The notes beneath the pieces were generated by a model. The model searched no databases, was not told the DNA's origin, and worked only from the letters and a program-made list of their open reading frames with translations. A stretch of 6,204 nucleotides of DNA. It comes from a virus. Its lineage: Duplodnaviria; Heunggongvirae; Uroviricota; Caudoviricetes. The position numbers and the translations under genes are program-made. How positions within the stretch are numbered: position 1 is the stretch's first letter; each line of letters starts with the position of its first letter. The stretch lies in the IMG/VR virus record IMGVR_UViG_2541047839_000003; one strand, 5' to 3'. This document shows, piece by piece, positions 2,611-6,204 of this stretch.

Positions 2611-2634
2611 AACACGCGCCAGCGTGTTTTTTTG
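2611..2634 (+). terminator. intrinsic terminator / attenuator in the operon leader
   Basis: Stem CACGC (2613-2617) / GCGTG (2622-2626) with loop GCCA, extendable by two A-T pairs, followed by a run of seven T (2627-2633). It lies inside the leader, upstream of the structured RNA element and the first ORF. Confidence 0.5.
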
Positions 2635-2664
2635 TGTGTATAGACCTGCGCATATCCGAATTAT

Positions 2665-2743
2665 GGTGGCTCAGGTGGGGCTGACTTCGGTCGGGCCGGT
2701 TTCTTCGTTTACCGGTATTGCGAACCCCGCCTGGGCTACCACC
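2665..2743 (+). ncRNA. candidate C4/CI-type immunity antisense RNA (structured ~80-nt element); boundaries approximate
   Basis: A long-range stem closes the element: GGTGG 2665-2669 with CCACC 2739-2743, CAGG 2672-2675 with CCTG 2730-2733, TGGGG 2676-2680 with CCCCG 2725-2729. It encloses two hairpins: CTGAC-TTCG-GTCGG (2681-2694) and CCGG-loop-CCGG (2696-2715). The second loop contains CTTCGTTT (2703-2710), complementary to AAACGAAG (2598-2605) in the leader and, with one G-U pair, to AAACGGAG (2784-2791) over the GGAG of the next ORF. Confidence 0.35.
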
Positions 2744-2799
2744 AATAAAGAGATTCGCAACTCTGGTGGTAGCACGACCAATAAAACGGAGTGCATACC

Positions 2800-2964
2800 A
2801 TGTTCAAATTCAAATTTGCGGCAGTCGTTCGCACAGACAAAAAGTCCCACATTCATCATCTTTCCACTATCGCGTCATCTGAACGGGAAGCTCGTCGCCA
2901 GTTCGCCAGCCGGTTTGTCCTGGTATTGTCTGCCCGTATTCCGGTGCGCGAGGTGGCTGCATGA
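2800..2964 (+). CDS. Icd-like small protein (54 aa), candidate cell-division inhibitor and first gene of the operon
   Basis: ORF MFKFKFAAVVRTDKKSHIHHLSTIASSEREARRQFASRFVLVLSARIPVREVAA, too short for the supplied track. GGAG at 2788-2791 lies 8 nt before ATG 2800. Its stop overlaps the next start (ATGA at 2961-2964). Size, position and the motif resemble Icd-like proteins as I recall them; not verified by alignment. Confidence 0.55.
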   Translation: MFKFKFAAVVRTDKKSHIHHLSTIASSEREARRQFASRFVLVLSARIPVREVAA

Positions 2965-3194
2965 ATCAGGTAAAAATGAACGCTGTTGGCCTGCTGGAAT
3001 CGTTGGATGAACGTCTGGCTCAGGTCTATGCGCTCGTATCATCAGCCCATCGGACAGTCTCCAGCTGTGAGGCGTCGATTTATCTCTCAGAAGCAGGGAA
3101 ACTCCTTCAAATTGCGTGTGAGTTAACACACGAAGCACAGGGGTATTCAGCATCTCTCTCGTCGCAATTGCAGCACAATAAGGAGGCCAAATGA
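2961..3194 (+). CDS. hypothetical small protein (77 aa), middle gene of the operon
   Basis: Listed ORF; GAGGTGG at 2951-2957 precedes ATG 2961. Its stop overlaps the next start (ATGA at 3191-3194). No family recognised; it occupies the position of an antirepressor accessory gene. Confidence 0.55.
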   Translation: MNQVKMNAVGLLESLDERLAQVYALVSSAHRTVSSCEASIYLSEAGKLLQIACELTHEAQGYSASLSSQLQHNKEAK

Positions 3195-3973
3195 GCGCGT
3201 TAGCTGTATTTTCGTTTCAGGAAGAGCATCAGGTTCGTGTAGTGATGATTAACGGTGAGCCGTGGTTTGTGGCTAAGGATGTATGTGATGCTTTAAGACT
3301 CGTTAATTCCCGGAAGGCGCTAATGTCTCTGGATGAGGATGAAAAGGGTGTAACTTTAAGTTACACCCCTGGCGGAGAGCAAAAGCTAAATATTATTTCA
3401 GAGTCAGGTCTATACACCCTGATCCTCCGCTGCCGTGACGCGGTGAAGCAAGGCACAACAGCTTGGCGGTTTCGCAAATGGGTAACGAACGAAGTCTTGC
3501 CCTCTATTCGCAAAAATGGAGAGTACGTTTACATCGAGCCTGAGCCAATGCGAGCAGCGGAGCCGTTGAACTGGAGGCAGAAAGAGTATCTGCGAGGGCT
3601 GATTAACGATATAGCACAAAGTTTTCAGTACCGAAATGCCTGGATTAGCGGTGTATGGTTAGCTTTGCGTCGGGCGTGTCGTAATCCATCCCCGAACCCC
3701 ATAACGGTTGATGATTTGCCAGCAATTACGGCAGAACTGCGCCGGATTTTGACGGCTGCTGAGTCGGCATTGGGGAACATGCGCACGTATGAACGAGAGT
3801 TGTTGCGTGATGTTGTTCGTGGGGGTAGGCGGAGTATGTCGTGTGGTGATTTACCCATCACCGATATTAACTCTGATCTGGAAAAGGCGTTACCCGCGCA
3901 TTTTGAACTGGCAGTTCAAAAACTTGAGCAGTTATCCGCGCAGCTAAAGCCAGCAGAAATCACCAATAAATAG
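3191..3973 (+). CDS. Bro-N domain protein, antirepressor-like (260 aa)
   Basis: N-terminal ~110 aa (FSFQEEHQVRVVMINGEPWFVAKDVCDALRL ... ESGLYTLILRCRDAVKQGTTAWRFRKWVTNEVLPSIRKNGEY) matches the Bro-N signature seen in phage Ant/KilA-type proteins. AGGAGG at 3181-3186 precedes ATG 3191; stop TAG 3971-3973. Confidence 0.85.
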   Translation: MSALAVFSFQEEHQVRVVMINGEPWFVAKDVCDALRLVNSRKALMSLDEDEKGVTLSYTPGGEQKLNIISESGLYTLILRCRDAVKQGTTAWRFRKWVTNEVLPSIRKNGEYVYIEPEPMRAAEPLNWRQKEYLRGLINDIAQSFQYRNAWISGVWLALRRACRNPSPNPITVDDLPAITAELRRILTAAESALGNMRTYERELLRDVVRGGRRSMSCGDLPITDINSDLEKALPAHFELAVQKLEQLSAQLKPAEITNK

Positions 3974-4144: not shown

Positions 4145-6046
4145 TTAACCGAAATATGTCAGCCATGCTAACTGCATTGCTGACATGGGGCTGTTTGCAC
4201 TGCCGGACCACGCATAATTCTGGCCATTATAATGAAACTCAACAACGTATGAGCCATCACCAATATTTCTCACCGGCTTAAATACCGGCTTAGATACAGG
4301 CGAAGAAGGTGCAGGCGGTTGCTGTTCTTCTACGCTATCTTCCTCTTCCTCTTCCTCTTCCTCTATCTCAATTTCGTCGTCATCCAGATCGTCATCCTCT
4401 GATAATTCATCCGCCAGTTCAGGTATTGCTTCCAGTTCTTCTTCGTCAGGCATAACGATTTCTGGAGTATCTATTTTCAGTTGCCATTGTCCGTTTTCGC
4501 CAACAAATTGCCCCAGAGCATCAGCAGCAAATTCCAGGTATCGACTAATCATTGTTGGGCTAAATTTGAACGCTCTTAGAGTGCTGTTCGTGATTTTTAT
4601 AGAGGGGTCCTGCTCTACCAGCTGCTTAACTGTGTTATGCAGACGAACCCCGGCATCTCCTCTGGCGAATCCAGGCATTTCGTCATCAAGCTGCTGCAAT
4701 GCTTCCAGCCTGGTATTTTCGTTTCCAGTATTTGGCCTCCATGTCTTTGAGAAGTTGGCCAGCTTGAATTGCTTATAGTGTAATTGAGTGTTTTCATCGT
4801 CATGGCCTAAAATTTCCATAAAGAAAACATCTTCATCTACGTTTTTCCAACGAGGATCTACGCGGAAAAACATTTCATACGCAATACGGGCATAAATAGC
4901 ACGACTATCTTTATAAACACGGCGGTCATCTTTGAAAAATGATTTAACCCACGGGTTAAAAGCCTTTGCTAATATGGCATTAATACGTCCGTTTTCAGAG
5001 CGTGTGTCGTTATCTCCATAACCTTTAACGACATCATCAAAATCAGATGCTGCTGGGCATGAGCGAAGTACATTTATTAAATAAACAAATGTTTTTGCTT
5101 CGCATAATGTATATATTTTTCTGGTTATATTATCAGAAGTTCTTTTTTTAGCTTGGCCTAAAAAATCAACGGTATACTTACCAGAAACAGTAAATGTACC
5201 TTGATACATAATCTCAATCATTCGTCTTCCTGACAATGCAGCAAGTGCAAATGCCAAAGGAGCCATACCTGAACGAGTGTTTAGATTATTTAATGTAGCA
5301 GGGCTATTTATAATATCGTAAATAGCTTGCATATATTTAGGGTAATCAATGACCACCACGTTACGTTTCTTATTGTGCAGAACGTCCGCCCATCGTTGCT
5401 GGATAGATGCACGTTCGGCAGGGCTTAGTTGAAGATGATAGAGAATCTCATGGTTAACTTTTAGCTGATTCAACTCCTCAAGTAAGGCAGATCCTTGCTG
5501 TAGTAATTTATATAAATAATCGCGCTTATCTTTCCAGTTATCGCTAGTTAAATCAGAAATGGCGAATTGCCACTCTTTATATTTATTTGATAATTTCAAT
5601 AACTTATTATGACTTTTGTTATCGCCAATTCTGATATTAGATAAATCTTCTGATAGAGGGAGAATTAATTTTAATTTTGCCTGTAAAGCTGACATTCTCT
5701 GGCGAATATCGGCAGCAGGTAGAGAAAGCCATGACAATAGCTCCTCATTATATAAAGGATACTTTTCAGATAGGCGATGTATATTTTTTTCAAAGCTATG
5801 ATGAAGTTTATCATCAAACCGTTTTCTGGCCCTGCTCATATAGGCATTGAATGTGTTGGCTGTAATTCTTTTTTCTAATCCTTTCCCCCTAAACTTTCGC
5901 TTGTCATTAAATAATGCATTTTTAAATTTTAATGCAACAGCCTTTATTTTTTTTGTTTTCTCCCCTTGAGGACGGTCAGAGTTATCTATTGACTCAACAT
6001 CGCTAACAAGTGAGTTTATTAATTCACCGATTTTTACTTTGCTCAT
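4145..6046 (-). CDS. telN: protelomerase (telomere resolvase), TelN/TelK family, complete, 633 aa
   Basis: The translation is recognisably close along its length to N15 TelN as I recall it (MSKVKIGELIN..., KRITANTFNAYMSRARKRFDDKLHHSF, TRSGMAPLAFALAA.SGRRMIEIM, RSENGRINAILAKAFNPWVKSF, ILGHDDENTQLHYKQFKLANFS). His423-Tyr424 (Tyr codon at 4775-4777) sits where I recall the TelN catalytic tyrosine. The start is preceded by AGGAGAGG on the minus strand; stop TAA at 4145-4147. Confidence 0.93.
   Translation of the reverse strand: MSKVKIGELINSLVSDVESIDNSDRPQGEKTKKIKAVALKFKNALFNDKRKFRGKGLEKRITANTFNAYMSRARKRFDDKLHHSFEKNIHRLSEKYPLYNEELLSWLSLPAADIRQRMSALQAKLKLILPLSEDLSNIRIGDNKSHNKLLKLSNKYKEWQFAISDLTSDNWKDKRDYLYKLLQQGSALLEELNQLKVNHEILYHLQLSPAERASIQQRWADVLHNKKRNVVVIDYPKYMQAIYDIINSPATLNNLNTRSGMAPLAFALAALSGRRMIEIMYQGTFTVSGKYTVDFLGQAKKRTSDNITRKIYTLCEAKTFVYLINVLRSCPAASDFDDVVKGYGDNDTRSENGRINAILAKAFNPWVKSFFKDDRRVYKDSRAIYARIAYEMFFRVDPRWKNVDEDVFFMEILGHDDENTQLHYKQFKLANFSKTWRPNTGNENTRLEALQQLDDEMPGFARGDAGVRLHNTVKQLVEQDPSIKITNSTLRAFKFSPTMISRYLEFAADALGQFVGENGQWQLKIDTPEIVMPDEEELEAIPELADELSEDDDLDDDEIEIEEEEEEEEDSVEEQQPPAPSSPVSKPVFKPVRNIGDGSYVVEFHYNGQNYAWSGSANSPMSAMQLAWLTYFG
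4338..4363 (-). repeat. (CTTCCT)4 hexamer repeat encoding an eight-Glu run in the telN linker
   Basis: TCTTCCTCTTCCTCTTCCTCTTCCTC on the plus strand corresponds to (GAG GAA)4 on the coding strand, inside the acidic segment DDDEIEIEEEEEEEEDSVEE. Confidence 0.8.
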
Positions 6047-6080
6047 CTTTCCTCTCCTGATTATCCGCTCGGATTATCGT

Positions 6081-6176
6081 AACACAATTTGAGAATAAGA
6101 TAACTAATAACGCGTTAACTTAGCCACAAACTAACAGAACACAATAACGGATAATAAATAAAAACACAATATCGGA
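6081..6176. repeat. three direct repeats of AACACAAT upstream of telN, candidate tos-type TelN-binding repeats
   Basis: AACACAAT occurs at 6081-6088, 6138-6145 and 6163-6170; the last two extend to GAACACAATAACGG and AAACACAATATCGG (12 of 14 identical). In telN orientation they read ATTGTGTT, resembling the ATTGTGTG arm of the N15 telomere palindrome as I recall it. Confidence 0.45.
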
Positions 6177-6204
6177 ACGTTAAAATTTGTTCCTTGACTT
6201 TGTT

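Follow-up and report, generated by a model that had tools for sequence, protein, structure and literature searches.

The window, i.e. the entire stretch of 6,204 nt that was analysed, corresponds to the telL end of a roughly 46-kb linear plasmid-prophage found in E. coli and similar to N15 (Ravinvirus). It hosts telN (4145..6046, minus strand), which encodes a protelomerase (telomere resolvase) of 633 aa. The initial annotation had named the ORF telN, and its assignment to the TelN/TelK-type protelomerases is established by the Pfam domains TelK_N, TelK_muzzle, ResT-TelK_cat and TelK_stirrup (E values from 1e-25 to 1e-50), by the match to the TelK crystal-structure chain 2v6e (E 1.8e-295), and by 77% identity to N15 TelN over the full length. 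The catalytic tyrosine falls by alignment at Y424 (Y425 in N15), and the stirrup domain spans residues 443-533. A Shine-Dalgarno sequence, AGGAGAGG, can be read directly at 6051..6058 (minus strand), 4 nt upstream of the telN ATG, and a purine-rich block is common to all aligned relatives at this position. Within telN, at 4338-4364, the hexamer TCTTCC is repeated about 4.5 times in tandem; read on the minus, coding strand it specifies the poly-Glu tract EEEEEEEE, which belongs to the acidic C-terminal linker of the enzyme. The corresponding acidic stretch of N15 TelN is shorter and different, and the tandem could be a slippage-prone length polymorphism. Two plus-strand ORFs converge on telN, one carrying a Phage_ASH domain (2624-3010), the other, of 260 aa, a Bro-N domain (3191-3973). 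The place of the Bro-N ORF is taken in N15 by an anti-repressor gene (gene 30 Ant), which similarly lies beside telN.

The element itself is already in GenBank. Positions 5500-6204 of the window are 99.1% identical to Escherichia phage YDC107_1 (CP025712.1, L001), and 98.9% identical to PhiR46_1 (PV340565.1, L002). The latter record, linear and 46.3 kb long, ends in telL and telR, and includes ParAB, a replication gene of the primase type, and structural genes akin to those of lambda. This layout, together with the read-through of the tip in CP025712.1, fits a linear plasmid-prophage, the ends of which are predicted to be hairpins. Among 5426 complete E. coli genomes, 17 (~0.3%) harbour similar linear plasmids, and the E. 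coli matches reside on plasmids in 23 cases out of 23. Public records of the element often carry a perfect inverted duplication departing from the telO dyad, as L001 at 3739-6705, and many sequences match in two places. In duplicated records telN occurs twice, one copy being frameshifted into fragments annotated as 'protelomerase domain protein', and record lengths rise up to 60-91 kb for a replicon of roughly 46 kb. Rather than real gene content, these inverted duplications seem to reflect an assembly that read through the hairpin telomere, or else a head-to-head dimer.

The telomere past the window edge

Both CP025712.1 and PV340565.1 continue beyond the edge of the window, where they read …ccttgactttgtt, then ctgaaaatcagcacataatttcccattatacgc and gcgtataatgg, with ctgaaaatcagcacataatttcccattatacgc coming immediately after base 6204. 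The telomere had been predicted to lie just beyond this base, and extension of the sequence proved the prediction right. The two ~99%-identical records share the palindrome CCATTATACGC/GCGTATAATGG, the dyad of which, corresponding to the hairpin tip, falls between window-equivalent positions 6237 and 6238, thus 33 nt past base 6204. From the dyad to the telN ATG there are 191 nt, as against 192 nt in N15 and 190 nt in the phiKO2 group. By the same two records, telO corresponds to positions 6227-6248, and the arm box, ATTATGTGCTGATT in telN direction, to positions 6210-6223. The 22-bp telO, CCATTATACGCGCGTATAATGG, is the same as in N15. PV340565.1 opens with an annotated "telL site" and carries a "telR site" at the far end, beside ParAB. 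CP025712.1 goes on beyond the tip with telN repeated perfectly in inverted orientation, as expected from an assembly reading around a hairpin. A palindrome of the telO type was looked for in 6047-6204 as well, and the repeat search found none, in agreement with what had been noticed from the sequence.

A plus-strand promoter-like sequence, TTGACT-18-CATAAT (10/12 matches), occupies 6194-6199, continues past the edge (L001 3695-3724), and points toward the hairpin tip. Its -10 hexamer falls within the arm box, and the sequence is kept in the clade of the window and absent from N15. Matches of this quality are at the level of chance, about 1.2 being expected in the scan.

Three repeats in the telN leader

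The leader of telN (6047-6204) is AT-rich, as initially remarked, its GC content being 33% vs 43% for the whole window. A pattern search of the 6204-nt window identified exactly three perfect copies of the 8-mer AACACAAT, all on the plus strand and all confined to the leader, where they had been first spotted, at 6081-6088, 6138-6145 and 6163-6170. No further exact copy occurs in the rest of the 6204-nt window, and the five matches with one mismatch found elsewhere are at chance level. The 8-mer reads ATTGTGTT in telN direction. Two of the copies had been reported to share 12 of 14 residues; the likeness is real and slightly better, since copies 2 and 3 agree at 13 of 14 positions (AACACAATAACGGA and AACACAATATCGGA).

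Extended to 14 nt, read on the minus strand, and numbered from the dyad, the three repeats define three accessory boxes. The proximal box, ATTGTGTTACGATA, spans 6075..6088 (+150 to +163), and contains the exact 8-mer at 6081-6088. The middle box, TCCGTTATTGTGTT, spans 6138..6151, with the 8-mer at 6138-6145 (+93 to +100). The distal box, TCCGATATTGTGTT, spans 6163..6176, with the 8-mer at 6163-6170 (+68 to +75). In telN direction ATTGTGTT is thus found at +68, +93 and +150. A fourth, degenerate box in the opposite orientation occupies the final 8 nt of the window (6197..6204, plus strand; +34 to +41), and reads ACTTTGTT on the plus strand and AACAAAGT in telN direction. Its AACA, at +34 to +37, is invariant in 11 of 11 aligned sequences, and the phiKO2 group has at this position AACACAGT, one mismatch away from the box.

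Other features of the leader may be mentioned. The proximal and middle boxes are enclosed by a perfect 8-nt inverted repeat, ATTATCCG and CGGATAAT, located at 6060-6067 and 6148-6155, the two arms of which are separated by 80 nt; being only 8 nt long, it is possibly a chance match. GATTATC is present in two copies in direct orientation at 6059-6077. In the spacer that separates the middle from the proximal box, position 6125 is variable: the window has C, YDC107_1 has G, PhiR46_1 has T, and IMG/VR relatives have A or G. The bases around it (…TTTGTG[N]CTAAG…) are fixed across records. YDC107_1 and PhiR46_1 have the same three boxes as the window, and differ from it by a few SNPs, among which the one at 6125. 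In these and similar plasmid records either telL/telR or nothing is annotated in the leader, and the accessory boxes are unannotated. A hidden RNA or peptide gene was considered, and rejected: the leader has no ORF of at least 20 aa, and the single match found in Rfam at a permissive threshold, to a snoRNA, is noise.

The distribution of the 8-mer in the complete PhiR46_1 genome (46,290 bp, both strands) is telomere-specific. Of six exact copies, five are no more than 190 bp away from one or the other end, and all of these read outward from their own hairpin, so that the two sets are mirror-oriented. The sixth falls in the first part of parA, some 500 bp short of the right end. The orientation is outward for all box matches but one on both arms across related elements. 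The terminal operons, telN at one end and parAB at the other, are in turn transcribed away from the hairpin, co-directionally with the boxes. Iterons or an origin, partition sites, and repressor operators were rejected as identities for the repeats, the motif being confined to the two telomeres; the N15 origin is located inside repA, and the N15 centromere-like sites are dispersed and unrelated in sequence.

That the repeats are no product of chance had been claimed from the beginning. In dinucleotide-preserving shuffles of 6047-6204, at least three copies of some 8-mer were obtained 201 times out of 20,000, and the only other 8-mers reaching three copies per 158-nt stretch of the window are those of the TCTTCC tandem in telN. 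A frequency of about 1% for a region of 158 nt is not overwhelming alone, and the repeats could be seen as a functionless by-product of an AT-rich, low-complexity leader. A chance origin is in effect refuted by comparative data, and we regard it as exceedingly improbable: the location of five of the six genomic copies at the telomeres obeys a strict orientation rule, and the positions of the boxes are kept across at least 8 lineages while spacers diverge.

Homology and conservation of the boxes

The natural target of N15 TelN, called tos (telomerase occupancy site), is about 310 bp long, and the 56-bp telRL within it consists of telO and the L3/R3 motifs (PMC12624138, summarising Deneke et al. 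2000, 2002). The L1/L2 and R1/R2 repeats of N15 are degenerate copies of L3/R3 (PMC12624138), and primers used to amplify N15 tos by PCR reach exactly to the +150 box, GTGTTACGATATCCAGAGAC (PMC2847241). On the basis of sequence and position, it is well supported that the three boxes of the window are the telL-side accessory repeats of an N15-type tos region, and thus counterparts of known repeats. A gene of the TelN/TelK family adjoins them, and they flank a telRL with the telO core …TACGCGCGTA…, as read in two ~99%-identical records, the palindrome lying outside the window itself. The offsets coincide with those of the N15 repeats (+68/+93/+150 vs +69/+93/+150), in line with the N15 parallel drawn in the initial annotation, and the boxes are degenerate copies of the arm box (L3/R3), mirror-oriented about the dyad. 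The resemblance to one arm of telRL, also pointed out at the outset, holds when measured: ATTGTGTT matches the N15 arm box ATTGTGTG at 7 of 8 positions, and the arm box of its own lineage, ATTATGTG, at 6 of 8; of the proximal 14-mer, 11 of 14 positions agree with the N15 arm box. When accessory segments are compared with the arm-box region, 9.0 of 12 positions match, vs 7.0 for spacer segments.

N15 is the closest term of comparison. Along with the likeness of TelN and the identity of telO, N15 shares the orientation of the boxes, and the proximal 14-mer ATTGTGTTACGATA is identical in the two phages. The arm box, located at +15 in both, differs (ATTGTGTGCTGATA in N15 vs ATTATGTGCTGATT in the window lineage), and spacers are only about 50% identical. 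While the window lineage has three perfect copies of ATTGTGTT, the N15 cores are GTTGTGTT at +69, ATTATGTT at +93, and ATTGTGTT at +150. The TelK protein of phiKO2 is 80% identical in the N-terminal 200 aa, and phiKO2 has the same telO, an identical arm box ATTATGTGCTGATT, and boxes at +69, +93 and +150. In the phiKO2 group one more box is present, at +131, and the box consensus, ATTGTGTTATGAT, is longer. The structure of phiKO2 TelK (2V6E) spans the minimal site alone, and does not include accessory boxes. The extra box of the group (L004, L005 and L006; +131 to +148) reads ATTGTGTGATGTTTCTCAGT and is CRP-site-like, the CRP site consensus being TGTGA-N6-TCAnn. In the more distant Yersinia phages PY54 and P840 a protelomerase gene similarly lies beside a palindrome with central TACGCGCGTA and flanking accessory repeats, in the form of a 15-bp / 10-bp inverted repeat, and GGGTTACGATAA is found upstream of tel. 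The PY54 protelomerase is only 38% identical, and its box sequence is of the GGTTAC type.

The spacing of the boxes is maintained in elements from several hosts. Boxes reside at +69, +93 and +150 in an Enterobacter phage and in a Pseudocitrobacter element (L032), and at +69, +93, +131 and +150 in phiKO2, KpLi5 and Kpn74, all three with an arm box at +15. More distant elements were collected from IMG/VR and GTDB genomes: L030, L035 of Rouxiella, L036 of Xenorhabdus, and L037 of Enterobacteriaceae LSJC7. Their protelomerases are 46-56% identical to that of the window, and the best matches to their own arm boxes fall at +68 to +70, +91 to +93, and +147 to +150. Considered one by one, the distal box has counterparts at +68 to +70 in relatives; the middle box is found at +93 in every lineage in which TelN identity is at least 76%, and at +91 to +93 in the distant ones; the +150 box is present in N15, the Enterobacter phage, L032 and the phiKO2 group, and lies at +147 to +150 in L030, L035, L036 and L037. 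The motif is accompanied by a protelomerase gene in Escherichia, Klebsiella, Enterobacter, Pseudocitrobacter, Xenorhabdus and Rouxiella. The distance from dyad to ATG is 189-192 nt in 6 of 8 lineages although spacers diverge.

In an alignment of the telN-side arm from 11 sequences the boxes stand out as conserved islands. The arms differ little in length (189-192 nt), which leaves the alignment with hardly any gaps, and bias introduced by the aligner should therefore be small. The pairwise column identity among five lineages is 0.86 for the boxes, vs 0.51 for the rest of the segment from +29 to +191, the values for the individual boxes being 0.88 (proximal), 0.93 (middle) and 0.78 (distal). 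Random placement of three 8-column blocks equalled the conservation of the boxes once in 20,000 trials. Judged from these alignments, both the sequence and the spacing of the boxes are under selective conservation while spacers drift. The maintenance of box offsets (about +69, +93 and +150) and orientation across hosts is a modest step beyond the published statements that we found.

Possible functions of the boxes

Binding of the protelomerase would be the likeliest function of the boxes. Degenerate copies of the arm box, reading outward from the hairpin tip at the fixed offsets +68, +93 and +150, would most likely offer protelomerase monomers additional, weaker places to dock. In combination with their mirror images on the other arm, they may increase the local concentration of the enzyme, and a larger, higher-order nucleoprotein complex could be formed both where resolution takes place and on the finished hairpin, to the benefit of in vivo resolution and/or end protection. 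Protelomerase sitting on the proximal box would repress telN as well, because this box contains the best-conserved -10-like element of the gene. We consider this reading of the telL-side tos repeats, taken as a whole, probable.

Published data speak in part for docking of the protelomerase, and in part against the boxes being essential. TelK monomers bind the target sequence preferentially, and then dimerise (PMC3575837). Binding of the CTD1 domain of TelN to accessory repeats has been called 'conceivable', and a higher-order protective structure has been speculated upon, CTD1 being non-essential for end protection (PMC12624138). The palindrome of PY54 is only partially functional in vivo without adjacent sequences, and the 56-bp telRL alone is enough for processing by N15 TelN (PMC3540006). 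The flanking repeat was proposed to matter for in vivo processing in PY54, and is dispensable in P840 (PMC10612081). Since the 56-bp telRL suffices, and the P840 flanking repeat is dispensable, the boxes are plausibly non-essential for catalysis.

The arm likeness may alternatively be superficial, and the boxes be bound by a different protein, either a host nucleoid factor or another phage factor organising telomere-proximal DNA. In the window lineage the boxes match each other (8/8) better than their own arm box (6/8); at positions 4 and 8 they share G and T, where the arm box has A and G, respectively; and the region is AT-rich. Lineage-specific co-variation of arm box and accessory boxes was not significant, either in a fixed register (own 7.25 vs other 7.44; 13,840 of 20,000 permutations) or in a register-tolerant test (own 9.0 vs other 8.6; 2000 of 20,000 permutations). 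Yet, the mirror symmetry about the dyad, and the location of five of the six genomic copies at the telomeres, argue for a telomere-specific reader; the motif persists across many hosts together with the protelomerase gene, and no other candidate DNA-binding gene is consistently adjacent. We thus deem the involvement of a different protein quite unlikely.

Transcription is the other process in which the boxes could take part. An extended -10-like element, TGtTACGAT (6076..6084, minus strand; hexamer 6076-6081, TG 6083-6084), is a candidate for the telN promoter. It sits inside the proximal box, and ends 29 nt before the telN ATG. By an ad hoc promoter score, TGnTA(C/T)GAT at about +154 to +162 takes one of the top two ranks in 8 of 9 lineages. 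It is the sole candidate found at a conserved position among the nine. A scan of leader and telomere with the strict sigma-70 consensus called no promoter on the telN strand, TGtTACGAT included, and the terminator-like matches in the same region were the telomere palindrome itself and a weak GGAAC/GTTCC stem. If TGtTACGAT is the promoter of telN, any protein sitting on the proximal box would occlude it. Autoregulation of TelN, suggested in the initial annotation, is plausible through the proximal box on these sequence grounds, but the proposal is a tentative one, less likely than not, and no report of TelN autoregulation was found in the searchable literature.

As a rival reading, the boxes could be conserved mainly as transcription signals for RNA polymerase (-10, extended -10 or -35-like elements), or as an operator to which a transcription factor of the telomere-proximal operons would bind. 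The TGnTACGAT of the proximal box would fit such a role, and several boxes of the phiKO2 group read TGTTATGAT, a near-consensus extended -10. The core GTTACGATAA is kept upstream of tel even in PY54, the protelomerase of which is 38% identical, and at both ends the boxes are co-directional with the adjacent genes. However, three boxes at fixed offsets, 82 nt apart, plus a mirror set, cannot all be the telN promoter. The boxes at +68 and +93 have no usable -10 in this lineage (ATTGTGTTTTTATT and ATTGTGTTCTGTTA), and the other promoters of the 46-kb genome are practically devoid of the 8-mer. In addition, the boxes resemble the telRL arm box, which is a protelomerase contact region. A primary role in transcription therefore appears unlikely, and docking of the protelomerase remains the reading that we favor.

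A more elaborate version of protelomerase docking may be envisaged. The array of three boxes and its mirror set could work as a scaffold, on which additional protelomerase would wrap or loop the hairpin end, giving rise to a shelterin-like cap against SbcCD. Through the box overlapping the -10, occupancy of the cap would be coupled to the expression of telN. The spacing +69, +93 and +150 is conserved down to 46% protelomerase identity, and selection on box spacing argues for an architectural role. We look at such a cap as possible, though rather unlikely.

The function of the repeats was still called speculative in 2025 (PMC12624138). The boxes offer precise targets for mutagenesis in the study of telomere resolution and end protection, and in linear vectors based on TelN/tos.
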